64,000 nt of DNA from Elusimicrobiota bacterium (GCA_035534315.1 DATLSD010000006.1:10839-74838), one strand, 5' to 3'. Counted from the first letter of the stretch, positions 1 to 17,064 are shown. Notes: generated by a model from the letters alone, not told the origin. Numbers and translations: made by a program.

Positions 1-911
1 CCGTCCGCCGGGTTGAAAATCTCGTAAACGCCGGGCTTTACCGGAAGAAGCGCGACGGGCGCGCCGGAAAAATCCTGCTCCGGCGAAGCGCCGGGGCTGG
101 GTGCGGCGTCCGCCGATGGCGCCGGCTCCTGTGCCTTCGGACCGGCCAGGTTCGCGAGAATGGCGCCGCAGTCGCTTTTCCACCAGTCGCCCCGCAGGGC
201 CACGCGGCGCGAACGCACGCGCGAGGCTTGGCAGACGGCGTCCACGTAGAAGCGGGGCGAGGGATAGGAAGCGCCGCCTGCCGGGTGGACGAACTCGATG
301 CCCGCGGCTTCGCCCACGGCCAGCAGCGCGGAAAACAAGGCGTTGGCGTCATGGACCTGCGCGAGGCGGGCCTTGGGCTCGATGATGCTGGCCAAGCGGG
401 TCAAGGCAGCCCGATAGGCGCGATCATCCGCGGCTTGCCGGCGCTTCAAGCGCTCGACATCGTCCGCATCCCCCTGCTCGATGAGGCGGGCAAGCTTCTC
501 CATCAAGCCGTCTTGCAAGCTTCGCACGCTTTCCAGCGTGGCTTCTTTCTCCTCGACCTTGACGTCGGCCGAGCCCGCGGGCGAGAGCGCGTCCGCGACG
601 GTCTGCAGGTAGAGTCTAAAATCCTCGGCCGCGCCCGTGCTCTTGGCGAAATCCTGCGCCGATTCGCGCCGCACGGCCGCGCCCAAGCGCCCCACCGCGA
701 GCAGCGAGAATCCATTGTACGCGGGAGCGCCCGAGAAAATGCCGCCCTGGGAAGCGGTGAAAAGATGTCGCCGCGGCCCCGCAGGAGCGCCGTCCTTGGC
801 GCGCACGGCGAAGACGTCGACCTGCCCGGCCTCGACCTTGTAAATCCAGCCCGCGTCATCCAAAAGAACCGGATGGTTGCCGGAGAGTTGCATCAGCGCT
901 TCCGGACTCAT
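1..911 (-). CDS. Partial N-terminal portion of a second NHLP-system ABC-type transporter, with a cyclic-nucleotide-binding-like domain; runs off the window start
   Basis: Hand-translated minus frame from ATG near 909-911 with GAGGAG RBS, 8 nt after the stop of the C39 ABC gene. Open to position 1, which explains its absence from the ORF track. N-terminus (HPVLLDDAGWIYKVEAGQVDVFAV...) is paralogous to ORF 10805..11509. NHLP loci typically carry a second, cNMP-domain ABC protein. Confidence 0.4.
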   Translation of the reverse strand, partial: MSPEALMQLSGNHPVLLDDAGWIYKVEAGQVDVFAVRAKDGAPAGPRRHLFTASQGGIFSGAPAYNGFSLLAVGRLGAAVRRESAQDFAKSTGAAEDFRLYLQTVADALSPAGSADVKVEEKEATLESVRSLQDGLMEKLARLIEQGDADDVERLKRRQAADDRAYRAALTRLASIIEPKARLAQVHDANALFSALLAVGEAAGIEFVHPAGGASYPSPRFYVDAVCQASRVRSRRVALRGDWWKSDCGAILANLAGPKAQEPAPSADAAPSPGASPEQDFSGAPVALLPVKPGVYEIFNPAD

Positions 912-918
912 CGGCTCC

Positions 919-3126
919 TCACTGCACCCCGGCCAGCCGCGCGTAGGCGCCGCCTTGCGCCTTTAACTCGTCGTGGGTGCCGCGCTCGACCGTCTTGCCG
1001 TCCTCGAGCACGATAATCTCATCGGCGTCGCGCACCGTGCTCAGACGGTGAGCGATAATGATGCAGGTGCATCCCCGGCGGCGCAGATTGTCGTCGATGA
1101 TTTTTTCCGTCACGGTATCCAAGGCGCTGGTGGCCTCGTCCAGGACCAGCACGCGCGGGTTCAAGACCAAAGCCCGCGCGATTTCCAGGCGCTGGCGCTG
1201 GCCGCCGCTCAAATTGGCGCCGCCCTCCTCCAAAACCGCGTCATAGCCGCCCGCGCGCGCGACGATGTCGTTATGGATGCAGGCATCCCGGGCAGCGGCG
1301 ACAATTTGATCCTCGGGCACGGTGTCATCCCAAAGGGTCAGGTTGTCGCGCACCGTGCCGGCAAAAAGCGCGATGTCCTGGTCCACGAAGGCCACCGAGT
1401 TGGCTAAAAGCGCGCGCGGCAGTTTCTCCCGCGGCACGCCGTCGAAAAGGATGTCGCCGCTCCAAGGCGGGTAAAGACCCGTGAGTATTTTTGAAATGGT
1501 GGATTTGCCGCAGCCGCTGGGCCCGACCAGCGCCACGCGGCTGCCGGGCTTAAGCGATAGGCTGAAGTCCTCAATGAGCGGCTCGGAAAGCCGTGAATAG
1601 CCGAAGGTCAGGCCGCGCAAGTCAACTTGACCCGAAAGTTTGGCCTGCGGCGGTTCGGCCTCAGAGCCTGTGGGCTCCGCCTCCGCCGAAGCCGCAGGAT
1701 CGGCCGGATAGGCCATGACGTCGTCCAGGCGGTTCATGTCGCCCTCGAATTCTTGGAACGTGCCCATGAGGTTGACGGTGCGATTGACCGGATCGATGAA
1801 GCTCGCCATGAGGCTCTGGAACGCGACCAAAAGGCCCAGCGTCATGTGCCCGCGCATGACGCTCAAGCCTCCGAAAGCCAGCACCGCGGCCGTGGCCAGG
1901 GCCTGCAAGAGCGGCGGAATCTGCAGGAAAGGCTGGGTGACCTCGTTCAACTGGAGAGTGTAGCTCACCAGCTTGGCCTGATAGCCGGCCCAGGTGGAGA
2001 AAAAATCCGACTCCCCCCCGGTCGCCTTCAGGGTCTCGATGGCCTGCAGGCCGCCCATGGAAACGCCCATGAGCTTGCCCTGCTCGCGCACCAGGCGCCG
2101 GTTTCCATCGACGCGCTTTCTTTGGATAGCGCGCGCGGCGGCGTAGTTGGCGCCCAAGGCTCCGATGGCGATCAATGTCAAAAGCGGGTTGATGGCGAAC
2201 ATCAGGGCCGCATAGAAGACGACCATGACCAGGTCAACCGCGGCCCCGGCCATGTCGGAGGCCATGATGTGGGCCAGGCGCTTGTTGATGGCCACGCGGT
2301 TGGCGATGTCGCCGCAGAAGCGCTGCGCGTAGAAGTCCACGGGCAGGCGCAGCACGTGCCAGAGAAATTTTCCGGAGCCCGAGACCGAGAGCTTGGTCTC
2401 CAGGCGGTTCAAGTAGTATTTCTGCAGCCAGGTAAGCGCCCCGCGCATGACGGCGGTGATGAGCATTCCCAGCAAGAGGGGCTTGATCCAGTCCGTCATC
2501 TGGAGCACGAGGTAATCGTCCACGAAGATGCGGATGAAGGTGGGGATGACCAGGCCCGGCACGACCAGGGCCAGGCCGGCGATGATGATGTAGGAAAGCG
2601 CCTCCTTGGAGGATTCCATGCGCTGGCGCAAGCCCGGCCACATGGATGGTTTCACGCCGCCCTTCTTGAACTCAGGGCCCGGCTTGAAGGCCAGCGTCAC
2701 GCCGGTGAAGGACTCGTCGAATTCCTCGTCTGAAACCGCGCGCGGGCCGACCGCCGGATCGGCGAGATGGACTACGCCCTTGCCGAAGCCCTCGACCACC
2801 AAGAAGTGGTTGAAGTTCCAGAACACGATGACCGGCAGGGCCATCTGCCGCAGTTCCTGCGGTTCTTTGCGGTAGCCCGTCGCTTCAAGCCCGTAGGCGC
2901 GCGCCGCGCGAAGGACGTTGCGGGCGTTGCTGCCGTCGCGGGAGACGCCGCAGGCCTTGCGCAGTTCCTCCAAGGGAACGTAGCGCCCGTAATAACCCAG
3001 CACCATGGCCAGGGACGCCGCCCCGCACTCGACCGCCTCCATCTGCAGGACGGTCGGCACGCGGGCCCGGCTCGGCCGCCCGAAAATCCGCGCGACCGGC
3101 TCAAGCAGGGATTTAGGAAGAGGCAC
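919..3126 (-). CDS. Bacteriocin/NHLP-type ABC transporter with N-terminal C39 peptidase domain, permease and ATPase
   Basis: 735 aa. C39 Cys motif (ECGAASLAMVLGYYG) sits at the N-terminus, a TM region in the middle, and Walker A GPSGCGKST plus LSGGQRQRLEIARAL at the C-terminus. Confidence 0.9.
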   Translation of the reverse strand: MPLPKSLLEPVARIFGRPSRARVPTVLQMEAVECGAASLAMVLGYYGRYVPLEELRKACGVSRDGSNARNVLRAARAYGLEATGYRKEPQELRQMALPVIVFWNFNHFLVVEGFGKGVVHLADPAVGPRAVSDEEFDESFTGVTLAFKPGPEFKKGGVKPSMWPGLRQRMESSKEALSYIIIAGLALVVPGLVIPTFIRIFVDDYLVLQMTDWIKPLLLGMLITAVMRGALTWLQKYYLNRLETKLSVSGSGKFLWHVLRLPVDFYAQRFCGDIANRVAINKRLAHIMASDMAGAAVDLVMVVFYAALMFAINPLLTLIAIGALGANYAAARAIQRKRVDGNRRLVREQGKLMGVSMGGLQAIETLKATGGESDFFSTWAGYQAKLVSYTLQLNEVTQPFLQIPPLLQALATAAVLAFGGLSVMRGHMTLGLLVAFQSLMASFIDPVNRTVNLMGTFQEFEGDMNRLDDVMAYPADPAASAEAEPTGSEAEPPQAKLSGQVDLRGLTFGYSRLSEPLIEDFSLSLKPGSRVALVGPSGCGKSTISKILTGLYPPWSGDILFDGVPREKLPRALLANSVAFVDQDIALFAGTVRDNLTLWDDTVPEDQIVAAARDACIHNDIVARAGGYDAVLEEGGANLSGGQRQRLEIARALVLNPRVLVLDEATSALDTVTEKIIDDNLRRRGCTCIIIAHRLSTVRDADEIIVLEDGKTVERGTHDELKAQGGAYARLAGVQ

Positions 3127-3133
3127 GTTGGGA

Positions 3134-4210
3134 TCAGAGCCCGAGCAGCGACTTCATCGCCGGGATGACCAAGGTGATGGGCCGGCGCTTCTTGACGATA
3201 ATGCGCACGTCGCACATCATGCCGGCCTTGATCTTCAGTTGGGGCCCCTCCGAGGAAGACCAGCGGTAGCCGCTGAAGTTGTTGGAATCCTTGTCCAGCG
3301 ATATCCTTAAAATGTAGGGAGCGCCGCCCGAAGTGAGCTCCTGGTCTAGAATGTTGTTGCGCGTAAGCTCGAAAATCATCTGTTCGCGCGCGGGAAATTC
3401 GGAGACGTAGTAGACTTGGCCCGTGAGATAGCCGTACTCTTCCTTCTTAATGATGCGCGGCGAAACCTCGGCGGCCATCCCGGGCTTGGCCTGGTTGCCC
3501 ACGCTGGGGATGAACGCGATGGCGTTGAGACTTTGCCCCTCATCGACGTAGGTCATAAGGAAGGCGCCCTTCTGGATGAGCGTTCCGGGCGAGGTCATGA
3601 CCTCGACGATGCGCCCGCTCTTGGGGGCAATGACATCGGTGGCCTCTTTAAGCTCCATGCCGTTTAGGGCCAGCTGGTTTTGCAGGGACTTGAGGCTGGT
3701 TTGCGCCCGGGCCAAGTTCTGCTTCGCGGTCTCAAGCACGTCGGGCGCGATGAGGCCGTCCTTGAGCGCCACCTGCATCGCGCGCACCTGCCGGTCCAGG
3801 CTGCGGATATGCTCCTGGGTCGCCGCGATGCTTTGGTTTATTTCGCCCGCGGAGCGCGCGCCCTTTTGCGCCATGCTGCTTTGATCCAAAGTCGCCACGA
3901 CCTCGTCCTTGGTGACCAAGTCCCCCTCGGCGACGAAAATCTGCTTGACGATGCCGGTCCCGGGCGAGTAGATATTGTCGACGCCTCGCGGCGGCATGAT
4001 GATGGCCGGACCCGAGATGGTGGTGGGGATGCTTCCCAGCACGGACCAAATGAGCGCCAAAACGATGAGGGCGCACAGCGTCCACAAGGCGTACCAGCCC
4101 TTGGGCGTGGTCACCTGCATCAGGTAGTCGAGCTGCTCGGGCGTGGAGAGCCGCTCCAAGGAAGCCTTTCGGAATATCTCTTGCTCGGCCATGGGGTTGA
4201 ATCTTAACAC
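3134..4210 (-). CDS. HlyD-family secretion adaptor of the bacteriocin export system
   Basis: 358 aa with an N-terminal TM and a long coiled-coil; 8 nt upstream of the ABC exporter. Confidence 0.8.
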   Translation of the reverse strand: MLRFNPMAEQEIFRKASLERLSTPEQLDYLMQVTTPKGWYALWTLCALIVLALIWSVLGSIPTTISGPAIIMPPRGVDNIYSPGTGIVKQIFVAEGDLVTKDEVVATLDQSSMAQKGARSAGEINQSIAATQEHIRSLDRQVRAMQVALKDGLIAPDVLETAKQNLARAQTSLKSLQNQLALNGMELKEATDVIAPKSGRIVEVMTSPGTLIQKGAFLMTYVDEGQSLNAIAFIPSVGNQAKPGMAAEVSPRIIKKEEYGYLTGQVYYVSEFPAREQMIFELTRNNILDQELTSGGAPYILRISLDKDSNNFSGYRWSSSEGPQLKIKAGMMCDVRIIVKKRRPITLVIPAMKSLLGL

Positions 4211-4226
4211 TCAATACGATGGGTAT

Positions 4227-7200
4227 TCAAGCGAACGCCTCGACTTCCGGCAGATCGTCAAGCAGGAACCGCGCGGCCGCGTAGCCGACGCCCGCCTGGC
4301 CCTGGAAAAAGCCGGGATTGGGCGGCCCCCCGTCAAAACCCAGGCGCAGCGCCCCGCGCCGGGCCCGGGAAACAACGCGCGCAATTTTATGCCGTGCTTG
4401 CCGCGTCAAAGCCTCGTCGCTCAGCGCCCGCGCGGCGCGCGCGAGGAAGAGAGCGGCTCCCGCCTCGCCGCAGCAGAGATGATCCACGGCAGGTTCGTCC
4501 GCGTAGCGCTCCACGGCCGCGGCGGCCCAGCGCGCGGCCCGCGAAAAATCGAGCCCCAAAATCCGGCCCGTTTCCAGCAAGCCGAGGCCGACGCCCGCCG
4601 CGCCGCCGCACCAGCTCAAGACAAAGCGCGGCTTGTCCCCCTGCCCGAAATCGCGCCAGTCCGGCCAGTTGCCCGCCTCGGCGTCGTAGCTCGAGGCGCA
4701 GAGCTCGGCCAGATCGCGGGAAATCTCCGCCCAAGGCCCGCCGCGCTTGCTCATCCGCGCGCAGACATAGGCCGCGCCCGCCGCGCCGTGGGCGAAACCC
4801 AACTCCGGCCGTTGCGCCCGGCCCGAGGCGATATCGTTGAACAGGCTCCGGCTCGCGGCGAGAAATTCATTTCCGATCTCTTCACGCCGCCTATCCAACT
4901 CCCCGGCCAAATCGGTCGGCGGGGCGCCGGGCAGCGCGTCGAGCGCCAAAAGCGCGCCGGGAATTCCTCCCAGCAAATCCGTCCGGCGCGCATCCTCCGA
5001 AGACAGATATTTGGGCGAAAGCGCCGCGGCCAACTGGGCCGCTTCCGCGATGAGTGATTCTTCTCCCAGGATTCGTCCGATGGCCGAAAGACCGTAGGAC
5101 AAGGACGCCGCTCCCGTGCCGATGCCCAGGCCCATGCCGCGCGTCAGCCGCTCCATGCCGTAGCGGCGCGAGTCCCGCGCGACCAGGCGCGCCGTGGCCA
5201 ACGCGACGCCGCGGGTCCGGGGATTTTTCCCCAGCTTATGGGCCGCGGCCAGAAAAAGCGCGATGCCCAGCGCGCCGTCGAAAAGCCGGCCGCCGACCGG
5301 GCCGTACTGCCAGTTGCGGGAACGCTCGTCGTAGCACATGGAGAGCCACCACGCCTCATCGCCCGCGGTCGTCAAGGCGCTTTCAAGCAAGTCGTCGGCC
5401 AGATTGAGAACAAAATCCTGCATGACGTCCGGATTAAAATCCTCCGCCGCCCCGGCTTCACCGCCTGGGACAAGCTTCGCCGGCGCCGCTTTCGGCGTGA
5501 AAAAGCTCGCGCGCAAAAACCGGCTCTGCCGGGCCAAGTCCGCCTCGTCAAGAGCGGCCAGGCGCTTGCGGACCAAATCAAGCGGCGCCTCGTTCATCAC
5601 CAGAATCCGCCGCCCGCCGCAAGACGCGTAATCATGGCCTGGCGCGGTTTTAAACACCGGGACATCTCGGCAAGACAGCGCCCGGATTTCCTCGACCGCG
5701 CTCAAGCCCAGGCTTTGCCGCTCCTTCTCGTCTTCCACGCCCGAAAGCGCGCGCCAGAGCGGCTCGAACACGAAGCCTTGGGCCGCGCCATCCTTGAGCG
5801 CGGCGGGCTCCAGCGATTTTTGCAGCATGTGCGCGTAAACGCGGGTGTTGCGCAGGATAAAGCGCGTCGGCAGGTTCTCAAGGGACTCAAGCGCGGCGGA
5901 AACGGCTCGGCGGAACTCCGGGCGAAGAGCCTGGCGGTAGGCCGCGGCGAAGCCCGATTCGATGTCGTCGAGGAAATCAGCCGCGGCGACGGGCCGGCCG
6001 TTTAAAAGCGGCTTGTTGGCGCTCGACTCGATCCTCACTCGGACCTTCGCCACGCGCATGCGGTCACGGTTAGCGAACTCCCATCGCAGAGCCTCCCCAG
6101 ATTCCTCCGCGCTTCCCCCCGCTAAGCCGCTCGACTCCAAAATCCGGCCGCCTCCCAAAAACTCGTAGCGCGGCAGAAGCGCCGTGCGCACCACCGATTC
6201 AAAGAAGAAGCGGTGCTGGGCCAAATTGGCCGCGTCGAAGGCGCCCTCTCCCAGGCGCGGCCGCGGGCAGCAGAGAGTCTCCAAATCAATCGGATAAGGG
6301 CCGGCTGCCGTCGCGACGATGTTTTCGTGGTGCAAATCCGAGGCGCCCAGCAGGTACATATGAAAAAGCAGCTCGCCCCCGGACCTGAAGTATTTCCGCA
6401 CTTGAGCCTCTTCCGTAAAATCAGCCCGGCGGGCGAACGCGCAATAACCGTAGCCGCCGCGGTCGAGCACGCGCAGACGGCCCAAGCCGGAGACAAAGCC
6501 CGCCGCGTCAAGCCTGTCCAAGTAGGCGCAAAACCACGCTTCGGCCGCCAAGGGCTTGGGCTTATAAAGGAAGCGTCCGCCGCCGTCCAATTCCAGCAGG
6601 GCCACGGTCTTGCCGCCCTCGTGCGGATCCGAAACGCCGAATTCAGCGCGCGAGATGCGCCTAAACATGTCACTTGCCGCGAAAATCTTGGCCAGTTCCG
6701 GCCAATCCTCGGCGAGACGGGAGACGAACAGGGCCGCGTTCCTGCGCCAATTTTCGAGCAGGACGGCCATGACGCGAAGGAGCGCCGGATATTCTTCGAA
6801 GAACGCGCGGAAGTCCTCCGCGAGGAATCGATGGACGAACGCGCGGAAAGCCGCGTCAGAGTCGGGATCGAAGCCGGAGAGTTCCGCGCCTTCGAGGCCG
6901 CGGAAGACGGCGAACTCGGCCGCCAGGCAATAAGCCGAAGCCCCGCAAAGGTTCCTGAGCAGATCGCGCCCGATATCTCTCCAAGCTTGCGGCGCCAGCG
7001 GTGCCTCCGGAACAGCCGCAGCGCAAGCGCCCTTGAGGCGTGCGAGCTCGTGCTCGGTTAGCGCCGACCAGACAGGGCCAAAAGGAATGTCCGCGCCGGG
7101 CAGGGCGGCCGCGTCTTGTTCCGCGTCCCTTTGCGGCTTTTCCCGACCGCACGAGAGAAAGTCGATAATGTCGACCGCGGCGGGAACCCAGCTCTCATCC

Positions 7201-7391
7201 GCGGGAGAAAAATCGCGAAACGTCTTGCGAAGCTCCAAAAGGCCGGGCGCCAGCGGATCGATGGCCGCGCGCCAAGCCTCTTCGTCAGCGCCGCTCGAGC
7301 CGCCGACGGAGAGCCGCTCGGACAAGGAGCGCGCCTTGGGCACGAGCGCCTGGACGAAGACCTCCGGCGGGGCCGCGGACGCCGTGCTCAC
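4227..7391 (-). CDS. Class II lanthipeptide synthetase (LanM; dehydratase plus LanC-like cyclase)
   Basis: 1054 aa. N-domain carries YKPKP and DLHHEN motifs. C-domain carries GFAHGAAG, SWCGGAAG (WCxG) and HLCCGEAG, a CCG motif rather than CHG, as in ProcM. Confidence 0.85.
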   Translation of the reverse strand: MSTASAAPPEVFVQALVPKARSLSERLSVGGSSGADEEAWRAAIDPLAPGLLELRKTFRDFSPADESWVPAAVDIIDFLSCGREKPQRDAEQDAAALPGADIPFGPVWSALTEHELARLKGACAAAVPEAPLAPQAWRDIGRDLLRNLCGASAYCLAAEFAVFRGLEGAELSGFDPDSDAAFRAFVHRFLAEDFRAFFEEYPALLRVMAVLLENWRRNAALFVSRLAEDWPELAKIFAASDMFRRISRAEFGVSDPHEGGKTVALLELDGGGRFLYKPKPLAAEAWFCAYLDRLDAAGFVSGLGRLRVLDRGGYGYCAFARRADFTEEAQVRKYFRSGGELLFHMYLLGASDLHHENIVATAAGPYPIDLETLCCPRPRLGEGAFDAANLAQHRFFFESVVRTALLPRYEFLGGGRILESSGLAGGSAEESGEALRWEFANRDRMRVAKVRVRIESSANKPLLNGRPVAAADFLDDIESGFAAAYRQALRPEFRRAVSAALESLENLPTRFILRNTRVYAHMLQKSLEPAALKDGAAQGFVFEPLWRALSGVEDEKERQSLGLSAVEEIRALSCRDVPVFKTAPGHDYASCGGRRILVMNEAPLDLVRKRLAALDEADLARQSRFLRASFFTPKAAPAKLVPGGEAGAAEDFNPDVMQDFVLNLADDLLESALTTAGDEAWWLSMCYDERSRNWQYGPVGGRLFDGALGIALFLAAAHKLGKNPRTRGVALATARLVARDSRRYGMERLTRGMGLGIGTGAASLSYGLSAIGRILGEESLIAEAAQLAAALSPKYLSSEDARRTDLLGGIPGALLALDALPGAPPTDLAGELDRRREEIGNEFLAASRSLFNDIASGRAQRPELGFAHGAAGAAYVCARMSKRGGPWAEISRDLAELCASSYDAEAGNWPDWRDFGQGDKPRFVLSWCGGAAGVGLGLLETGRILGLDFSRAARWAAAAVERYADEPAVDHLCCGEAGAALFLARAARALSDEALTRQARHKIARVVSRARRGALRLGFDGGPPNPGFFQGQAGVGYAAARFLLDDLPEVEAFA

Positions 7392-8119
7392 GGCCCTTCC
7401 CGCCGCAGCCGCCAGGCCTCGGGATCGCGCGCGATAGCGTCCAAAAAGGCGAGATGGTTCGTGTGGTTGACGAAATTAAAGCTCAGGGTGACGGAGGGTT
7501 CTAGGCTCTGCGCCGAGTGCACGCGGCCGGCGGGGATCAAGAGCACGTCGCCGGGCTCGAGTTCCACGTCTTCGCTTGCGGCCAGGCCCTCCGCTCCGGC
7601 CAGACCGCGCAGGCTCACGCGCTTGCGGCCGACGAGCTGCGCCAGCCAGGCGTGCGTGGAGAACAAATCCGCGTGCGGCAGGGTTTCGGTGCCCGCCGGG
7701 CCGATGAAAAGCCAGCCGAATTTGCGCAGGTACCAGCTCTTCTGCGCGGGCGCGCGGAAGTCGAGCAGCGTGCGGCAGAACTCGGGAAACGCGAAGTCTT
7801 TAAGAAGCTCGGGATGATCCGCGAAGGGAGAATACTGCAGGGTGTACCACCGAGGCTCCTCAGCCGGGCCGGCTCCGCTTAAAATCCAATCGATGAATTC
7901 GGCCAAGCGCATCTTCTTGCCGCGCTTGGTCGCGCCGATTTTATCGCCCACGACCACCTCGTCTTGTCCCAACCTTTCGCGCAGAAACTTCCAGTTCCAG
8001 CGCTCGAACGCCCTCCAGCGCTTGGCGTAGCCCTTGAAGAGCGCCGGAATGCCCGGCGCGGAGAGCAGAGAGCGCTCGGCTTCCTCGGCGGAAATTTCCT
8101 CGCTGAATATCCGGATCAT
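7388..8119 (-). CDS. JmjC/cupin-like Fe(II)/2-oxoglutarate-type oxygenase, a candidate peptide hydroxylase
   Basis: 243 aa. HxD (LPHAD) followed by a distal His (RVHSAQ) in a cupin-sized protein; 4-nt overlap with the lanM start. Confidence 0.55.
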   Translation of the reverse strand: MIRIFSEEISAEEAERSLLSAPGIPALFKGYAKRWRAFERWNWKFLRERLGQDEVVVGDKIGATKRGKKMRLAEFIDWILSGAGPAEEPRWYTLQYSPFADHPELLKDFAFPEFCRTLLDFRAPAQKSWYLRKFGWLFIGPAGTETLPHADLFSTHAWLAQLVGRKRVSLRGLAGAEGLAASEDVELEPGDVLLIPAGRVHSAQSLEPSVTLSFNFVNHTNHLAFLDAIARDPEAWRLRREGP

Positions 8120-9018
8120 GACGGCGCGCCGGAAGCGAAAGCCGAGCGGCGGCGGATGTCCGCGCTAAAGCGCTCCTTCAAGATGCCTGAAAGCCTTTCC
8201 AGCAGCCGATCGCAGAGGTCGCGCGGGGTATAACCGGAAATCCGCGAGAGGCTCACGCCGATGAACCGGCAGTCCATCTCCGTGTCCTTAAGCCACGCGC
8301 CGAAGCGCTCCATCCGGGCGAAGGCTTCCTCATCGGTGGCGGTGCGGCCCTCGCCGCGCCCGTCCGAGCGGCCGAAGACCAGCAAATGCTTGTTCTCCGG
8401 CGTGACGGAAGGGCTTACGGGAGCGCCGGGCGAAATGCGCAGAAGATGATACGGATTGTTCTTAAAGCGCTCGTACTCTTCCGCAGTGACCTCAAGAGCG
8501 ACGGGATCTCGCTCCGGAGTCAGATTGCAGGAGAAATAGTCCAAGCAGATATCGAGCGCTACGGGGTATTGCGGCCGGATGTCTGAAAGGTTCTTCACCC
8601 GCGCGAAGCGCGCCTGGGCGGCGTCGGGCTTGCCCTGGAGATCGGGCGGCAGCGGCCCCCTGGCCCAGACCATGGCCCGGCGCTGGGCGTCGGTGGTGAA
8701 AATGCAGACCGAGCCGTCGTAAGGCAGGGTGGCCTCGTGCTCGCGGTGCCACCACACCTCGCTGAAAAACCCGTGAAGCACGGCGGGCCAGATAAAATTC
8801 GCGATGTTGAGTTCCTTCAGGATGAAGGCGCGGGTTTCTTCGAGACCGGCGCCCGGTTCCAGCATCGGGCCCTGCAGCGTCGGGAGATCCATGTCCGAGT
8901 GCTCGTCGATATGGACCAGCGAACTGCCGCGGGCGGGAAGAACGCCCTTGGCCGCGGCTTCCTTCCAAAAATAAAACGCCTCGTGGTGTTCCTCAAAAAC
9001 GACGCAGGGGACGGGCAT
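8116..9018 (-). CDS. Hypothetical tailoring protein, possibly UPF0489-like (arginase/deacetylase-related fold)
   Basis: 300 aa. The N-terminal PVPCVVFEEHHEAFYFW motif is reminiscent of the UPF0489 family, from memory only. Translationally coupled on both sides. Confidence 0.3.
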   Translation of the reverse strand: MPVPCVVFEEHHEAFYFWKEAAAKGVLPARGSSLVHIDEHSDMDLPTLQGPMLEPGAGLEETRAFILKELNIANFIWPAVLHGFFSEVWWHREHEATLPYDGSVCIFTTDAQRRAMVWARGPLPPDLQGKPDAAQARFARVKNLSDIRPQYPVALDICLDYFSCNLTPERDPVALEVTAEEYERFKNNPYHLLRISPGAPVSPSVTPENKHLLVFGRSDGRGEGRTATDEEAFARMERFGAWLKDTEMDCRFIGVSLSRISGYTPRDLCDRLLERLSGILKERFSADIRRRSAFASGAPS

Positions 9019-9953
9019 CAGCTCCGCGCGGAGGCCAGCGGAACTTCAAGCCCGCGCAAGGTCCAGGTCTTGTCCAGACAGGGCACCAGGTGCTTGTTTA
9101 ATGAGCGCAGCCACTCCGGATACTCCAAGGGGACGTCGAACTCCGCGCAGCTGGGCGCGCCTTCCTTCAGAAACATCTCGTAGTGCGCGTTCATGGCCGC
9201 GCGCAACAGCAGGACCGCGGCGGCGCGGTGGCGCGCGGCGAAGGCCGGATCGACCCAGAACTTGGTGTAGTAAAGAGTATCGGGCTTCTCAGCGAAGCGA
9301 TGGGTCGCGAACCAGCCCTTAGCCTCGCCCCCCGAGAACAGCATCTGGCTCGTCGACCAGTCGATTTCATTCTCACGAAAGCGCACGCTTAGATGCGCGG
9401 GCGCCCCGGCGCGCGAACCCCGCTCGATGGGGTCGAGCCCCTCGGCGCGGGCCTTGGTCCAGGAAATCACGCGCCAATCGGCGGCCGCGGACTCGCCGGC
9501 GCCCTTGGCCCAGCGCGGAATATTCGCGATGCGGCTCTGGCCGAAGAAAATGCGCGTAAAGGGCGTCCCGCAGCCGGCGCGAACGATGGTTTTTTCGACG
9601 GCCTCAAGCCCCGAAATGCGGCTGCCATAATTGACGGAGAGGCGCTCGAGTCCTGGCCGGCGCGAAAGCTCTTCTATTAGGCGGCGCAAAAGCGCGGCGC
9701 CAAGCCCTTGCCGCCGCCGCCCGGGCAGGACATAGACCGAGAGCAGCTCGGCCTTGCGCTCCGCGGGTTCGAGCCTCGCCAGCGCGAGCCCCTCCGGCTC
9801 CCCGCCCAATCCGAGCGCGGCCGCGGCCAGCCAAGAAAATTCCTTCCTTGCGACGCCCTGGGCGAAAGAAGGGTAGGTGAAACCGGCCCAAGGCGAAAAA
9901 TCCGTCCCGGGCCCCAAGGTGGAAAGCTGTCCGGAATTTAAAATGGCGGTCAT
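9018..9953 (-). CDS. GNAT-family N-acetyltransferase
   Basis: 311 aa with GNAT motif A (RRRQGLGAALLRRLIEE); 1-nt overlap with the next gene. Confidence 0.6.
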   Translation of the reverse strand: MTAILNSGQLSTLGPGTDFSPWAGFTYPSFAQGVARKEFSWLAAAALGLGGEPEGLALARLEPAERKAELLSVYVLPGRRRQGLGAALLRRLIEELSRRPGLERLSVNYGSRISGLEAVEKTIVRAGCGTPFTRIFFGQSRIANIPRWAKGAGESAAADWRVISWTKARAEGLDPIERGSRAGAPAHLSVRFRENEIDWSTSQMLFSGGEAKGWFATHRFAEKPDTLYYTKFWVDPAFAARHRAAAVLLLRAAMNAHYEMFLKEGAPSCAEFDVPLEYPEWLRSLNKHLVPCLDKTWTLRGLEVPLASARS

Positions 9954-10048
9954 AACGTGGCGTTGGATTTAAGAACCCTAAGCTTCGGGGCACGGGAGAA
10001 TGGCCCCGCGCCCCGAAGCGATGCCGTCGTGGATTTGGTCGGCCGAAA

Positions 10049-10366
10049 CTACATGCTCATCATGACGCAGGCCGAGGAGCCGCCGCAGGTCGCGCCGCAG
10101 CGTCCGCCGCCGGCGACTTTCTCGAGCTCGCTGTCGGAAAGCTCGCCGCCCGTCTTGACCAGATCGGGCACCACGACCACCAAGTCGGCGCCGTTGCGCG
10201 CCACGGCCTTGATGTTGAAGCCTTGAGGAAGGTCCTTGCCGGAGACCTCCTTGACCGCCTTGACCGGATCCTTGAGCGCCAGCTCGCGGAACTTCGCGTC
10301 CGTCGAAGCCTTGCGCGAAAATGCCTCCAAGGCCTTTTTCTGCTCGTCTTGTGTCCAGGGTTTCAT
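10049..10366 (-). CDS. NHLP-leader lanthipeptide precursor A (core GRCGATCGGSSACVMMSM)
   Basis: 105 aa. The leader matches the nitrile-hydratase-leader pattern (FRELALKDP...ELSDSELEKVAGG). The core has 3 Cys and several Ser/Thr, and an AGGAGA RBS is present. Confidence 0.85.
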   Translation of the reverse strand: MKPWTQDEQKKALEAFSRKASTDAKFRELALKDPVKAVKEVSGKDLPQGFNIKAVARNGADLVVVVPDLVKTGGELSDSELEKVAGGGRCGATCGGSSACVMMSM

Positions 10367-10431: not shown

Positions 10432-10794
10432 TTAGACGCAGGCGCCGCCCACGCCCGGCACGTACGTTGGTCCCGGAGGCACCGTGGACGAAACTAGGCA
10501 GACCTGGCTGATGCCGCAGCTTCCCGCGCAGCGGCCGCCCGCGACCTTCTCAAGCTCGCTGTCGGAAAGCTCGCCGCCCGTCTTGACCAGATCGGGAACC
10601 ACGAGCACCATGTCCACGCCGTCCCGCGCCACGGCAGCAAGCTTGAAGTCCGGCGGCAGCTCCTTGCCGGAGACTTCCTTGACCGCCTTGGCCGGGTCCT
10701 TAAGCGCCAGTTCCCGGAACTTCGCGTCCGTCGAGGCCTTGCGCGCGAACGCCTCCAAGGCCTTTTTCTTCTCGTCCTGAGTCCAAGGTTTCAT
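10432..10794 (-). CDS. NHLP-leader lanthipeptide precursor B (core RCAGSCGISQVCLVSSTVPPGPTYVPGVGGACV)
   Basis: An internal start (MKPWTQDEKKK) lies inside the 249-aa track ORF, giving 120 aa. The leader is about 90% identical to precursor A, and a GGAG RBS sits upstream of the ATG at 10794. Confidence 0.85.
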   Translation of the reverse strand: MKPWTQDEKKKALEAFARKASTDAKFRELALKDPAKAVKEVSGKELPPDFKLAAVARDGVDMVLVVPDLVKTGGELSDSELEKVAGGRCAGSCGISQVCLVSSTVPPGPTYVPGVGGACV

Positions 10795-10804
10795 TGATTT
10801 CTCC

Positions 10805-11509
10805 TTAATCCAAGCGCAGCTTAAAATTGTCCGGCAGGCTCCGGCCCAGCACCTCGGCGGCCGCCGCCCGCGGATTCGACATGAATTTCTCGCGAAAACC
10901 GGGTTGGGAGGCGGCGCGCTTGGCGACGGCGCGGCGGAGGCACGCCAGTTCAAACTCGCTTGGAAGCGGCGCGGCGGGGAATGCCTCCCCCTCGCCAAAT
11001 CGCGCGACGCGTTCGGCCAGAATTTCGCGCCAGAACTCGCGCGCGGACTGGAGATTATCGGCGAAACTTTGGGAAAAAGCCGGGGCCGGAATTTTTTCGG
11101 CGCCTTCGCCCAACAGCGAGTTGAAATGGGCAAGCCCTTCTCGAAGCCTTTTCGATTCCGCCGCGTCCGCCCGCCCGTCAAGCCTTCTCGCGTCGAAAGC
11201 GGCGCACCGGGCTTGGGCTCCGGGCGTGAAAATGGGAGTAAAGCGTCCGCGCGCGGCGGAAATTTCCATCAAGTCGAACAGGAATTCTCCGCTTGAAACG
11301 CGCAAAAGTCGGTGGCGCCGGATAAAGACGCCGCTGTCGGCGTCGCGGCGCGCTAAAAATAGGTCGAGCCGGCCCTCAAGAACCAGCCACGCCCGGCCTT
11401 CGGATCCGCACTGCACGTAGGGGACGCCGGCGGGAAGTTCCTGTCCGATGTCCTCGATTCTCGACGGCGTGGCCTCGGACGCTCCAATCATCGGAGGGGA
11501 TGTTATCAT
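10805..11509 (-). CDS. Hypothetical protein: cNMP-binding-like N-domain fused to a C-terminal NHLP-leader-like segment with no core
   Basis: 234 aa. The N-terminus (VQCGSEGRAWLVLEGRLDLFLA) resembles the N-terminus of the partial gene at 1..911. The C-terminus (FREKFMSNPRAAAAEVLGRSLPDNFKL) aligns with the precursor leaders. Confidence 0.5.
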   Translation of the reverse strand: MITSPPMIGASEATPSRIEDIGQELPAGVPYVQCGSEGRAWLVLEGRLDLFLARRDADSGVFIRRHRLLRVSSGEFLFDLMEISAARGRFTPIFTPGAQARCAAFDARRLDGRADAAESKRLREGLAHFNSLLGEGAEKIPAPAFSQSFADNLQSAREFWREILAERVARFGEGEAFPAAPLPSEFELACLRRAVAKRAASQPGFREKFMSNPRAAAAEVLGRSLPDNFKLRLD

Positions 11510-11525: not shown

Positions 11526-12554
11526 TTAGCGGCCGAAAAAGGCCCAGGCCGCGGCCGCGTTGCACAGCAAATAGGCCGCCGGATAAAGCGCGCGGGAGAA
11601 GGACCGGATGCGCGCCGCGGCTTTCGCGGAGCGACCGTCCGCGACGCGGTGAACGATGACGATTTCCACGATAGTAACGGCGGAAAAGACGAAGCCGATG
11701 AGGAAAAAAGCGTCGATATAGGTCAAGTACGGCAGGTGCGGCAGGCTGCCTGAAATCACGAAGAGAAAGGCGATCATGGTCAGGGCGGCGCTCAGGGCCA
11801 CGGAGAACTGGGCGGCCGTGTCGGTTTCCTTAATCCAAAGAGCGCAATAAGAAACGATGACCATGATAAAGAGCGGCAGAAAGACTTTCCAGATGTAGTA
11901 GCCGTAGCGCCGCTTGATGACCATGTTGAAGTCGATTTCCGGGATGCTGCCGCCCTTGCCGCCCAAGACTGACTCGGCCGGCACGGCCCGCATTCCCAAC
12001 ATTTTCCATTGCGCCAAGAGGGCCCAGGGCTGGCTGTTGATGCCGGTCTGTCCCGCATCAGGGACAAGCGCAACCGCATCCCGCTCATCCAAGAACGGTT
12101 GAAGCACCACGGGCAGGACCTGCTCGTCAAATGGAAAACGGTGGAAGGTCATCTGCATGGTCAGGTCGTCCTCGAAATCTTCCCAGAAAACAACCGTGCC
12201 GTCGGGATGCCGGCGGATGTTGGTTCCCAGCTTGAAGAGCCCGTTGACCGCGTTAGCCATGACGATGTTGGGCGTCCAAATTTTTTCCGGGTCGCACAGC
12301 CGGTCCGTGTCCTTGGCGCCGCGCGGCGCATACTTAAGACGGGAATCTTTCCATTGTTCGTAGAGATAGCCGCGGACGCGGAAGGTTTCCCCGACCTCGT
12401 CCACGCCGACCAAGTCGGTCACGTAGACGCCCACCTTGACCGGCACCCGCCCGTTTCTGCCCGGCGGCGGCGCGATAGAGGCGGCCGAGGAAGGCCGCAG
12501 GCTCAGGCCCAAGGATAAAATCAGGAACAACGCCGGGATTCTCGCGCGCCTCAT
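11526..12554 (-). CDS. Prokaryotic pentameric ligand-gated ion channel (Cys-loop receptor family homolog)
   Basis: A signal peptide from internal Met MRRARIPALF precedes the ligand-binding-domain pattern VKVGVYVTDLVGVDEVGETFRVRGYLYEQWKDSRLKY. There are four C-terminal TM helices. The track ORF (to 12806) carries an implausible N-extension. Confidence 0.7.
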   Translation of the reverse strand: MRRARIPALFLILSLGLSLRPSSAASIAPPPGRNGRVPVKVGVYVTDLVGVDEVGETFRVRGYLYEQWKDSRLKYAPRGAKDTDRLCDPEKIWTPNIVMANAVNGLFKLGTNIRRHPDGTVVFWEDFEDDLTMQMTFHRFPFDEQVLPVVLQPFLDERDAVALVPDAGQTGINSQPWALLAQWKMLGMRAVPAESVLGGKGGSIPEIDFNMVIKRRYGYYIWKVFLPLFIMVIVSYCALWIKETDTAAQFSVALSAALTMIAFLFVISGSLPHLPYLTYIDAFFLIGFVFSAVTIVEIVIVHRVADGRSAKAAARIRSFSRALYPAAYLLCNAAAAWAFFGR

Positions 12555-12776
12555 CAAGCGGAGATTATATCCTAAAAATGCTATCGTGATCGTGATGTTC
12601 GTCCTTTTGTTGCACCGGAGCCGCCCATGAAAAAGCAGTGCGTCGCGATGACGTCCGTCACCACCTACTCCGCCGCCCACCGGTGTCTCAAGGGCGCCGA
12701 CGCCCCCAAAAGCGGCCGTCGCCGGCTCTGCGCCCATCACCGCGCCCAAGCCGTCCGCGCCGGAAGCAGGTAAGTT

Positions 12777-13688
12777 TTGGCCAAACGGGAACTGCCCCGC
12801 TGGCAAGCCTTTCCGCTTGTCGCCCTGCTAAGCGCCCTTGGGCTCTTCGCTTCGGCCCTGCCGCGGCGCCTTGAAGTTTCCCTGGCCCGCACCCTGGGCC
12901 GGCTGGTGTTCCAGGCCCGGCTTTTCAAGCGCCGGGTGGTGGAATCCAACGTCAAGCGCTGCCTGCCGAAACTCAGCTTCGCCGAACGCCGCAGGCTCAT
13001 TCGGAACAACTACGAGCACTACGGGCTTCTCCTCTTCGAGTACATGCATTTTTTCTCCCCCTTCAAGGGCCACTGGCGTCGCTACGTTCCCACCGTCGCG
13101 CGCATGGAAGGCTTCGAACATTGGGAAAAGGCCCACGCGCGCGGCCGCGGCGTGATTTTCTTCTGCTCGCACCTGGGCTCCTGGGAAGCGGGAGCGGCCT
13201 CCATCGCCTTAAGCGGCGTCGAGGCCACCATCGTGACCACGGTCTTGACCCCGCGCTGGCTGCACGACAAGATCACGGCCTGCCGCGATTCGGTGGGCAT
13301 GAAGGCGGCTTATCACCCGGGCTCCATGCCCGCGGTGCTCAAAACCCTGCGCCGCGGCGGCTCGGTCGCCTTCATGAACGATCAGTACGCCGCGCCGCCC
13401 ATGGGCCTGCCGGCGGTTTTCTTCGGAACCAGCGTGGATACCTTAGCGGTCGTCGGGCCCCTGGCGCGACGGACCGGCGCGGCCGTGCTGCCGCTGCACA
13501 CCTTCCGCGCCGCCGACGGCATGACCACGGCCGTCATCGAGCCTGAATTAGAATTGGGCGACGCCTTGGACGACGCCTCGGCCGCGACCCAGCGCGTGGC
13601 CAGCCGTGTGGAATCCTGGGTGCGCGCCAACCCGGAACATTGGCTCTGGATGCACCGCCGGTTCAAGAACGTCGCGCCCGCGGCCTAA
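12777..13688 (+). CDS. Lipid A biosynthesis (LpxL/HtrB-like) lysophospholipid acyltransferase
   Basis: 303 aa with an N-terminal TM and the general LpxL-family layout. Confidence 0.65.
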   Translation: MAKRELPRWQAFPLVALLSALGLFASALPRRLEVSLARTLGRLVFQARLFKRRVVESNVKRCLPKLSFAERRRLIRNNYEHYGLLLFEYMHFFSPFKGHWRRYVPTVARMEGFEHWEKAHARGRGVIFFCSHLGSWEAGAASIALSGVEATIVTTVLTPRWLHDKITACRDSVGMKAAYHPGSMPAVLKTLRRGGSVAFMNDQYAAPPMGLPAVFFGTSVDTLAVVGPLARRTGAAVLPLHTFRAADGMTTAVIEPELELGDALDDASAATQRVASRVESWVRANPEHWLWMHRRFKNVAPAA

Positions 13689-13706
13689 AAGTCCTCAGCC
13701 TGCCCT

Positions 13707-14391
<685 letters not shown>

Positions 14392-14402
<11 letters not shown>

Positions 14403-17064
14403 CCGGCTCTCCCAGCGGCAGCGAAAATTTAAAAGAAGCGCCGCCTCCTTCGCGGCTCTCGGCCCAGATGCGCCCGCCGTGCGCGTTCAAGACCGCCCGG
14501 CAGATCGCCAGGCCCAAGCCGGCGCCCTTCGAGCCCTTGGCGTGATAGAATTTTTCAAAAACTTTTTCGAGGTCCTCGGGCGGGACGCCCGGCCCGCGGT
14601 CGGCCACCTCGACGATCAAGCGATCTTTTTCGGCCCGCGCGGTGACGGCGATGGGTGTTCCCTCGGGGGTGTGCCGCGCCGCGTTCTCCAGGAGGTTCAT
14701 GAAAACCTGCTCGATGAGCACGCCGTCCATCGGAACCAGCGGCAGGTCGGGAGGCACGCTGGTCGTTATCTCCCGGCGCGCGAGCATCGCCTCAAGGCGC
14801 CCCAGGGCCGAGCCGGCGATCTCCTCGATGGAGCCGGGCTCCTTGCGCAGCGCCACCGCGCCCGTTTCAAGGCGCGTGGTCTCGATGAGATTGGCGACCA
14901 AACGCGCCAGCCACTGGCCCTCCTCGATGACATTCTCCACGAGCTCGCGAGCCTTGTGCGTCAGCGGAGCGCCCGCATCCTGAAGCAGGCTCGTGGCCGA
15001 GCCGATGATGGCGGCTAAAGGCGTGCGCAAATCATGCGAAACTGACGAGAGCAGGGAACTGCGCAATCGCTCGGTCTCGGCGTCGATTTGCGACTGGCGC
15101 GCGCTTTCCTGGAGACGATCGACCTCGAGTGCCAGGCCGATTTGATGAGCGAAGGATTCCAGGAGCAGCATCTGATCGGGAATCAAAAGACGCTCCCGCG
15201 AGTGCGGCTGGACGCGGAGCACGCCCACGGGCCCCTCCGCGCCGGTCAAGGGCGCGTAGAGCGCGTTGACCACGGGCAGGGTCTGCGTGCCCAGTCCGGC
15301 CGACTGCCCCAGATCAAACACCCACTGCGCGACGCTGCGCTCCTTTTCATCGAGTTCCCGCTTGGCGCCCGAGGCGCTGCGGACTTCCAGAGCCCCCCGT
15401 TCCCCTTGCATGAGCGCGATGATGTCGCTGTCGAAAACCTCCGCGACATGGCGCGCCGCCACATCCAAAATAGCCTGCACGCCGCGCGTGCCGGCGAGCT
15501 CGCGGCTCAGGGAGTGCATCGCGGCCGTACGCATCTCTCCCAGGCGCGCCGACTCGGCCTGGGCTTGGATGCGCACGGTCAGCCCCGAGATGAAGAGCGC
15601 CACCGCCGCCATGACGACGAAGGTCACCAGGTAATCCCCGCTGCTCACGCTGAATGTAAAGCGCGGAGGCACGAAGAAGAAGTCGAAGCAGAGCACGGCC
15701 AGGATGGAGTAGAGCGCCGCGGGGCGGCGATGCCCGCGGGAAGCCACCAGCACGGCGCCGGCCAGGTAGAGCATGATGAGATCGGTCAGCGCCAAGTACG
15801 GGGAGACGAGAAAATCCAAGAGAGTGACCGCGGCCGCGGCGCCCGCCGCGACTACGTATTCCCACGGCGGCGTTTCCGGCTTCTTGGCCAATGCGGACGG
15901 AGCCGGTTCGGCGGCCGGGCCCTCTCCGCGGATGACGTAGACGTCGATGTCTCCGCTTTTCTGCACCAATTGATCGACGATGCTGCCGCGCAAGATCTCC
16001 TTCCAGCGCTGCCGCGCGCTCTTTCCTACCACGAGCTTGGTGACGTTGCGCTGCCGGGCCAAATCCAGCATGCCCTCGACCACGTCGCGTGTCGTCAGCG
16101 TGAGGGTCTGGGCGCCTAATTGTCCGGCCAAGCGCAGATTGTCGATGGCGCTGCTGCGCGCCGTCTCGGAGAGCCGCTGGGCCTGGGAATCAACGAAGAC
16201 GGCCAGCCACTCGGCGTGAAGGCCCGCGGCCATGCGCCGGGTTGCGCGGACGAGCTTCGCGGAACTGGGCCCGGGACCGACCGCGACCAGAAGCCGTTCG
16301 CGCGTGGGCCAGATGGCCTCGGGGGCTTGGCGGCGGCGGTAGGATTCCACCACAGCGGCCACGCCCTCGGCCGTGGCGCGCAGGGAGAGCTCGCGCAGCG
16401 CGGACAAATTGGACATCTTGAAGAAGCTCTGCACCGCGCGTTCGGCCATGTCGGGGACGTAGACCTTGCCCTCCTTCAAGCGATCCAAAAGCTCCTCGGG
16501 CGGCAAGTCGACCAGCTCGACGTCGGCGCGCTCCAAGACGGAGTCCGGCACGGTCTCGCGCACGATGACGCCCGTAATGCGCGCGACGATGTCGTTCAAG
16601 GTCTCCAAATGCTGGATGTTGAGAGTCGTGTAGACGTCGATGCCGCGATCCAGAAGCTCCAACACGTCTTGCCAGCGTTTGGAATGGCGGCTTCCCGGAG
16701 CGTTGGTATGCGCGAGTTCATCGACGAGAAGAAGCCCGGGCCTGCGCGCCAGGGCCGCGTCGATGTCGAAATCGTAGAGCTTGATGCCCCGGTGTTCGCC
16801 GACGCGGCGGGGTAGGACTTCCAGACCGTCGAGCAGTTCCCGGGTCTCGCGGCGGCCATGGGTCTCCGCCAGGCCCACGGCCACGTCCTCGCCATCGTTT
16901 TTCTTGATGCGCGCCGCCTGGAGCATGGCGTAGGTCTTGCCCACGCCGGGCGCGGCGCCGAGGAAAATCTTAAGCCTGCCGCCGACGCCGCGGGTCTCGT
17001 CCTGGCGCGCCTCGGGCAGGAAGGCTTCGGGTTCCGGGCGTTTTCGCTCTCTGGGCATTTTCAT
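14392..17064 (-). CDS. kdpD: Sensor histidine kinase KdpD
   Basis: 890 aa. An N-terminal KdpD/P-loop domain (GAAPGVGKTYAML) is followed by USP and TM regions, a GAF domain, the HisKA motif (SHDLRTPL) and an HATPase domain. Confidence 0.9.

Follow-up and report, generated by a model that had tools for sequence, protein, structure and literature searches.

To our knowledge, selidamides are the only ribosomal route to fatty-acylated, daptomycin-like lipopeptides; three have been characterised, and we know of only one, phaeornamide, that uses the full relay of an arginase, a hydroxylase, and a GNAT acyltransferase. Here we analyse a 64,000-nucleotide (nt) stretch of an Elusimicrobiota genome (DATLSD010000006.1:10839-74838; hereafter the window, whose full length is the frame of all coordinates), in which three overlapping genes, coding for a GNAT protein ('N'), a predicted peptide arginase ('R'), and a predicted JmjC hydroxylase ('I'), lie between two precursor genes and the gene of a lanthipeptide synthetase, LanM ('M'). 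As judged from gene order, protein families, and precursor cores, this trio quite probably serves a selidamide cluster of the phaeornamide type as its N-R-I tailoring cassette; that cluster most likely represents a further, uncharacterised member of the selidamide family rather than new biochemistry.

The phaeornamide (pha) cluster of Pseudophaeobacter arcticus DSM 23566, reconstituted and written as phaANRIM (Hubrich et al. 2022, PMC8784127), consists of an NHLP precursor, the GNAT PhaN, the PF12640 arginase PhaR, the PF08007 hydroxylase PhaI, dependent on iron and 2-oxoglutarate (2OG), and the LanM PhaM (PMC8784127); a review adds three transporter genes (PMC9505594). In co-expression, Arg is converted to ornithine (Orn) by PhaR, then to 4(S)-hydroxy-Orn by PhaI, and then acylated by PhaN to the Ndelta-(3S-hydroxydecanoyl) form; acylation is strictly arginase-dependent, hydroxylation is seen on Orn-containing species only, and lanthionines form regardless of the other steps (PMC8784127). 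The modified residue is at core position 2 and is followed by a Cys4-Thr7 ring (PMC8784127). The same authors filtered genomes for a GNAT maturase beside an NHLP or Nif11 precursor and a lanthionine synthetase, with the arginase optional (PMC8784127). In the window, the GNAT gene immediately follows two NHLP precursors and is itself followed by the arginase, JmjC, and LanM genes. The reading order is two precursors, N, R, I, M, an HlyD protein, and two ABC exporters; the precursors and maturation genes are as follows.

10432..10794, minus strand: precursor A1 ('long'), with an NHLP leader (TIGR03793), split from the core at GG
10049..10366, minus strand: precursor A2 ('short'), with an NHLP leader (TIGR03793)
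9018..9953, minus strand: 'N', predicted tandem-GNAT acyltransferase, 311 aa (PF00583, AlphaFold2 model)
8116..9018, minus strand: 'R', predicted peptide arginase, 300 aa (PF12640, match to structure 8BRP)
7388..8119, minus strand: 'I', predicted JmjC/Cupin_8 Fe(II)/2-oxoglutarate hydroxylase, 243 aa (PF13621, PF08007)
4227..7391, minus strand: 'M', class II lanthipeptide synthetase LanM, 1054 aa (TIGR03897, DUF4135 and LANC_like)

The open reading frames (ORFs) of N and R share 1 nt (TGATG, 9018), those of R and I share 4 nt (ATGA, 8116-8119), and those of I and lanM share 4 nt (GTGA, 7388-7391). Equal overlaps are seen in the orthologous Elusimicrobia contig L001, and the Nisaea locus L002 likewise has N-R and R-I overlaps. 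Short gene overlaps are commonplace in operons, hence the overlaps alone are unremarkable; what exceeds chance is the adjacency of GNAT, arginase, and JmjC genes, in the same order, in eight additional distinct loci that span at least four phyla. The initial annotation, made from the sequence, had described three genes overlapping one another and lanM by 1–4 nt, which the ORF calls and junction sequences bear out, and had taken them for coupled tailoring enzymes of a lanthipeptide cluster, which is supported here. Pfam finds domains in all three proteins (GNAT; UPF0489; Cupin_8 and JmjC_2), and the PF12640 match agrees with the suggestion that the middle one is UPF0489-like; the model proposed there for 8116..9018 has an arginase-type fold.

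Both precursors have an 87-aa NHLP-type leader ending in ELSDSELEKVAGG. The core of A1, RCAGSCGISQVCLVSSTVPPGPTYVPGVGGACV, contains one Arg (at position 1), no Lys, and four Cys; that of A2, GRCGATCGGSSACVMMSM, contains one Arg (at position 2), no Lys, and three Cys. Asp and Asn are also absent from both cores, and C-x-x-S/T units follow directly after the Arg; the long core has several Pro, the short cores none. The acceptor expected in selidamides is a Lys, or an Arg converted to Orn, close to the core terminus, and position 1 or 2 of the core is where the characterised selidamide GNATs act; here, the lone Arg is found at exactly these positions. The ortholog of A1 in L001 is 93% identical.

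Searches with the window proteins (tblastn) reveal adjacent GNAT, arginase, and JmjC genes, in this order, together with two or three NHLP precursors and NHLP exporters, at the following loci.

L005: N-R-I locus, Elusimicrobia
L006: N-R-I locus, Nisaea
L007: N-R-I locus, Acidobacteriota
L008 and L009: N-R-I loci, Vicinamibacteria
L011 and L012: N-R-I loci, Opitutales
L015: N-R-I locus, Alteromonadaceae

All of these except Nisaea have cores starting with R-C-x-x-S/T-C. The short cores follow the pattern (x)n-R-C-G-x-S-C-x-x-S-C..., and the long ones x-R-C-A-x-S-C-x-x-S-C-x-V-T-S-T-V-S-x-G-x-P-G-V-G-A-V-G-G-C-[VI]; irrespective of phylum, each complete RC-type locus examined pairs a short precursor with a long one. 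Exactly one Arg is present in 16 of the 17 RC-type cores and Lys in none of the 17, and Ser or Thr stands at +3 of Cys in 48 of 62 cases. An invariant Arg next to enzymes that require Arg is the strongest argument within the sequences for the trio converging on that residue. The JmjC gene is always directly downstream of the arginase gene in the loci compared. In the Alteromonadaceae metagenome-assembled genome (MAG), the 'long' precursor (L015, 6698-7060) has a core that starts with ICLISC... and lacks Arg, hence only the short peptide could be ornithine-acylated there. The underlying scan of genome contigs with the JmjC alignment, for which the pattern D[LV][FLW]xTHAWLA was used, returned 13 loci, P. 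arcticus not among them; a search of plasmids with the arginase (tblastn) yielded nothing beyond a Clostridioides UPF0489 fragment.

Given the homologies, folds, and catalytic motifs observed, together with the gene order, the conserved cassette, and the single invariant core Arg, we infer each chemical step, the order of steps, the hydroxylation site, and the acyl chain of the following relay by analogy with pha and with the kamptornamide (ksp) and nostolysamide (npu) systems. Once the two NHLP-leader precursors are made, R would hydrolyse the lone Arg at core position 1 or 2 to Orn and urea; I, a predicted ornithine side-chain hydroxylase, would hydroxylate the peptidyl Orn, with C4 assumed as in PhaI; and N is predicted to acylate the delta-amine of the (hydroxy)ornithine from acyl-coenzyme A (acyl-CoA), probably with a fatty chain of medium or long length. 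Independently, LanM would dehydrate Ser/Thr and close thioether rings, probably at the repeated C-x-x-S/T units; the system of the C39-ABC exporter, HlyD, and the second ABC exporter would cleave after GG and export the product. Since all steps before export would take place on the leader-attached peptide, the free N-terminus would not be available as an acceptor; with a sole Arg and no Lys in the leader-attached core, the only possible amine acceptor would be the arginase product.

The N protein matches PF00583 (1.3e-11, Pfam), and HVC08387.1, a database entry from an Elusimicrobiota MAG, is identical to it. Comparison by sequence with solved structures gives no close relative (best E 0.016). 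The AlphaFold2 model, with a predicted local distance difference test (pLDDT) score of 93.9, shows two GNAT-like halves; its top folds in the PDB, all tandem GNATs, are 7q3a, 1ozp (MshD), 2wpx, and VipF, the named neighbours being MAB_4324, MshD, the clavulanate tandem GNAT, and VipF. The CoA P-loop, RRQGLG, is at residues 80-85 in the N-terminal domain, as in the description modelled on NpuN of the nostolysamide cluster: a tandem GNAT with the P-loop Q/R-x-x-G-x-G/A in the N-terminal domain. In an exhaustive HMMER search, just two of 524 family representatives of ~300 aa score below 1e-30, hence N is a divergent member of the family; name look-up for its best relatives gives generic 'GNAT family' labels with no tie to KspN or NpuN. 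Homologs of N occupy the equivalent position in L005-L015.

The same relay could end differently, if N added an acetyl or short acyl group and so gave an N-delta-acetyl-(hydroxy)ornithine lanthipeptide and no lipopeptide, e.g., for charge neutralisation or self-protection. Pfam puts N in acetyltransferase families; the closest tandem-GNAT folds (MshD, VipF, and the clavulanate GNAT) use acetyl-CoA; and NpuN, which uses acyl-CoAs in vitro, accepts acetyl-CoA too, with the activity of nostolysamide unchanged by acylation. However, all three characterised GNATs that act on side chains of peptides made on the ribosome and modified after translation (RiPPs), from NHLP/Nif11-LanM clusters, selectively attach C10-C16 acyl groups in vivo, and we regard the short-acyl ending as unlikely.

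The I protein matches Cupin_8 (PF13621; 7.2e-17, 62.6 bits vs. a cutoff of 27.4) and JmjC_2 (PF08007; 5.4e-7, 29.6 bits vs. 22). In an alignment with 11 homologs, the triad H149-x-D151...H201 is invariant, as are K166 and T155; both the iron triad and the 2OG-binding Lys of an Fe(II)/2OG hydroxylase are present. The solved structures nearest to I are JMJD5, JMJD6, and the ribosomal L16 Arg hydroxylase, each a hydroxylase of basic side chains in proteins. JmjC enzymes hydroxylate carbon, not nitrogen, hence a hydroxamate-type product (N-hydroxy, N-acetyl-Orn), also considered, is ruled out.

Among solved structures, I is closest to JMJD5, which hydroxylates arginyl residues at C3, and at the C-terminus the JmjC_2 match points to the L16 Arg hydroxylase; I is likened to PhaI by family. 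It might accordingly act off Orn, either on C3 of Arg before the arginase (giving 3-hydroxy-Orn) or on another residue such as Val or Pro, several of which are present in the long core; the enzymes would then be only partly sequential, and nearer to separate decorations. This seems improbable, given that hydroxylation in the pha system is seen on Orn-containing species only (PMC8784127), that the JmjC gene is always immediately 3' of the arginase gene, that the short cores lack Pro, and that Arg is the only invariant non-ring residue.

The R protein matches UPF0489/PF12640 (1.1e-16, 62 bits vs. a cutoff of 27; Pfam) and, by sequence, the structure of the peptide arginase OspR (8BRP; E 1e-33). 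Its AlphaFold2 model (pLDDT 94.8) is aligned by Foldseek to 8BRP with a template modelling (TM) score of 0.81 (E 7e-26), agmatinase being next best. The peptide arginase motifs EEH(N/H)EAF, DXHXD, and LDIDLDYFSC here read EEHHEAF (residues 9-15), DEHSD (38-42), and LDICLDYFSC (155-164). In OspR, the binuclear Mn site is formed by His12, Asp39, His41, Asp43, Asp165, and Asp167, of which Asp165 is one of the two bridging both Mn ions; the published account calls the six ligands strictly conserved. Cys158 of R (codon 8545-8547, minus strand) sits at the Asp165 position, the remaining five ligands are identical, and Glu10 is intact. Cys is found at this position in 13 of 120 homologs; the Nisaea and Alteromonadaceae relatives likewise have the variant in their arginases, whereas the Vicinamibacteria ones do not. 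Its retention in three independent N-R-I lineages (Elusimicrobia, Nisaea, and Alteromonadaceae) points to a selected variant, not decay.

It is very unlikely that the Asp-to-Cys change has impaired or repurposed the arginase (as a leader-binding scaffold, or with another metal or chemistry) and left N and I without an Orn substrate: Cys158 does align with an Asp that bridges both Mn ions, and the OspR study mutated other ligands to probe metal dependence, but the retention in three lineages argues for selection, the other ligands and Glu10 are in place, Cys is able to ligate metals, and the cores offer N no other amine. Each of these alternatives is less likely than the pha-type relay.

Several points weigh against this relay. 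Scores of R against the NCBIfam peptide arginase model NF052474 (2.3e-52, 178 bits) are under the curated cutoff of 350, which places R outside that (FlmR/OhkR) subfamily, and with Cys158 at a ligand described as strictly conserved, its activity or metal use may differ. The leaders of A1 (E 8e-11, 41.7 bits) and A2 (E 8.5e-12, 44.8 bits) both score under the TIGR03793 cutoff of 50.9, although they nonetheless finish in an ELSDxELExVAGG junction, at whose GG leader and core are divided. N shares 26-31% identity with the GNATs of other N-R-I loci (best tblastn segments); acyl chain length is not readable from sequence, and acetyl-CoA is a substrate of NpuN in vitro. The likeness to PhaN, PhaR, and PhaI is drawn from families, gene order, and published descriptions, and the relay as a whole is argued from genes and models.

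If the pha-type relay holds, the functions first proposed for the trio need revision. Asp, Asn, or Lys had been named as targets of the JmjC enzyme, and Orn now appears most likely, the cores being devoid of these three residues. N-acetylation of the peptide had been proposed for the GNAT; N is of the tandem-GNAT type, whose characterised RiPP members put C10-C16 fatty acyl groups on side chains. A single relay that works in sequence on one Arg, as shown for phaANRIM (PMC8784127), is a better reading of the enzymes than three separate decorations. The expectation of an unusually decorated lanthipeptide thus stands as regards decoration, which is expected, and falls as regards novelty, given the published selidamide chemistry.

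Related loci show other combinations of these genes. An arginase match in Kamptonema (P0059), considered as the kamptornamide (ksp) cluster, proved to belong to a different Nif11/halogenase/arginase/Cupin_8 locus. Locus L018 (3951-8443, Kamptonema sp. MAG, DATGYA010000688.1) encodes a Nif11 precursor, a Trp halogenase, a peptide arginase, and a Cupin_8/JmjC protein, without GNAT or LanM, and may represent a different hydroxyornithine-containing RiPP class; an arginase–Cupin_8 pair in Kamptonema without GNAT and LanM supports a functional couple of arginase and hydroxylase. Locus L004 (767-13984, Logan SRR31012008) is a related RC-type cluster with LanM, arginase, and two tandem GNAT genes; it also encodes a luciferase-like oxidoreductase, an S41 peptidase, a pyruvyl transferase, a glycosyltransferase, a methyltransferase, and a separate JmjC protein, and appears to be a more heavily tailored variant.

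The remaining features of the cluster are the following.

9982..10019, minus strand: stem-loop, G+C-rich, 16 bp (RNA fold, counterpart in L005)
3134..4210, minus strand: HlyD-type NHLP bacteriocin secretion adaptor (TIGR03794)
919..3126, minus strand: C39 peptidase/ABC exporter (TIGR03796, Peptidase_C39)
3..935, minus strand: second NHLP-system ABC exporter, N-terminal 313 aa, truncated by the start of the window (tblastn, L005 ortholog as query)
10805..11509, minus strand: candidate accessory gene, 234 aa, cluster membership uncertain (weak TIGR03793)

LanM scores 568 bits with TIGR03897 (cutoff 304), matches DUF4135 and LANC_like, and has Cys927 and the Cys973-Cys974 'CCG' motif. The HlyD protein scores 267 bits with TIGR03794 (cutoff 156), and the C39-ABC exporter 1098 bits with TIGR03796 (cutoff 853), with Peptidase_C39 at 9e-37. 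The fragment of the second ABC exporter is 66% identical to residues 4-315 of its L005 ortholog (tblastn), which itself scores 883 bits with TIGR03797 (cutoff 709). The locus thus has the components of a class II lanthipeptide cluster with NHLP-type export: LanM, TIGR03794, and TIGR03796 are above cutoff, and TIGR03797 is so via the ortholog.

The stem-loop, a perfect 16-bp hairpin, lies in the 97-nt spacer that separates the last precursor gene from the GNAT gene; this spacer folds at -43.1 kcal/mol (z -3.5). A hairpin at the equivalent site of L005 (~8095-8140) has paired changes (GCTTCGG/CCGAAGC vs. GCTCCGG/CCGGAGC). No clear U-tract was found at the stem-loop. The element may be an attenuator or an RNA-processing site that sets the precursor:enzyme ratio.

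The candidate accessory gene lies directly upstream of the precursors. Near the C-terminus of its product, residues 192-232 weakly match TIGR03793 (2.2e-4), resembling the start of an NHLP leader; no Pfam domain was matched, comparison of its N-terminus with the N-terminal domain of the second ABC exporter gave no significant match (E 0.77), and an ortholog (55% identical) is found only in the Elusimicrobia locus. Beyond it, a homolog of prokaryotic pentameric ligand-gated ion channels (11526-12806, minus strand; Neur_chan_LBD and Neur_chan_memb) adjoins the cluster; its synteny is limited to the Elusimicrobia relative. The cluster is flanked at 12777-17064 by the gene of an LpxL/HtrB-type lipid A acyltransferase (plus strand) and by a KdpE/KdpD two-component pair (minus strand); they are probably unrelated housekeeping genes that mark its boundary. 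The LpxL-like acyltransferase (12777-13688) was considered as acyl supplier and rejected, since it is encoded on the other strand and has no counterpart in the orthologous Elusimicrobia locus. Further along, at 26000-30000, G+C content reaches ~70%, with an AT skew of -0.12 to -0.37; elsewhere in the window G+C is ~0.61-0.68.

The locus and its relatives indicate that the relay is portable in its entirety as a cassette and that it is present, along with a new and conserved core scaffold, in phyla that are poorly cultured (Elusimicrobiota, Acidobacteriota, and Verrucomicrobiota), the N-R-I cassette recurring in these and in Proteobacteria. Tentatively, the loci may form a horizontally spread family of two-peptide lipolanthipeptides, in which one LanM would serve a short (~18-21 aa) and a long (~30 aa) core, each with three consecutive Cys-first C-x-x-S/T rings behind a single acyl-hydroxyornithine, the peptides acting together like two-component lantibiotics and some lineages having the Cys-for-Asp arginase. 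The relatives are targets for heterologous production and provide new GNATs, possibly of different acyl selectivity, and the natural Asp-to-Cys variant is useful for probing metal use in peptide arginases. The value is in genome mining and enzyme discovery; a RiPP specialist would find the locus unsurprising. A search of a literature library combining hydroxyornithine, lanthipeptide, and arginase returned the pha system only, and one combining Elusimicrobia with lanthipeptide or NHLP returned nothing.

Among the known systems, landornamide (osp) shares with the window an NHLP precursor, LanM, and a peptide arginase (OspR, 8BRP); it differs in having a radical-SAM epimerase and neither GNAT nor hydroxylase, and OspR has all six canonical Asp/His ligands. 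The nostolysamides (npu) share a tandem GNAT with an N-terminal P-loop, NpuN, that acylates a class II lanthipeptide, with acyl-CoA as donor, on the side chain of core residue 1; however, the leader is of the Nif11 type, the acceptor is Lys, and arginase and hydroxylase are absent. Kamptornamide (ksp) of Kamptonema sp. PCC 6506 has an NHLP precursor, a GNAT, a peptide arginase, and LanM, with Orn acylated at core position 1, but lacks a hydroxylase and a dedicated exporter, and four core Arg are converted. The pha cluster has an NHLP precursor with a GG junction and the same enzyme families as the window (GNAT, PF12640, PF08007-type, and LanM); the A-N-R-I-M order in the window is that implied by the construct name phaANRIM, and the three transporter genes correspond to HlyD and the two ABC exporters. 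The target Arg is at core position 2 in pha and at 1 or 2 here, and pha has a C-x-x-T ring with Cys on its N-terminal side (Cys4-Thr7), C-x-x-S/T units recurring here. Unlike pha, the window belongs to the phylum Elusimicrobiota, encodes two precursors (short and long) rather than one, has cores with three or four Cys, for which multiple rings are predicted instead of one, and combines a divergent GNAT with an arginase that has Cys at the Asp165 position.

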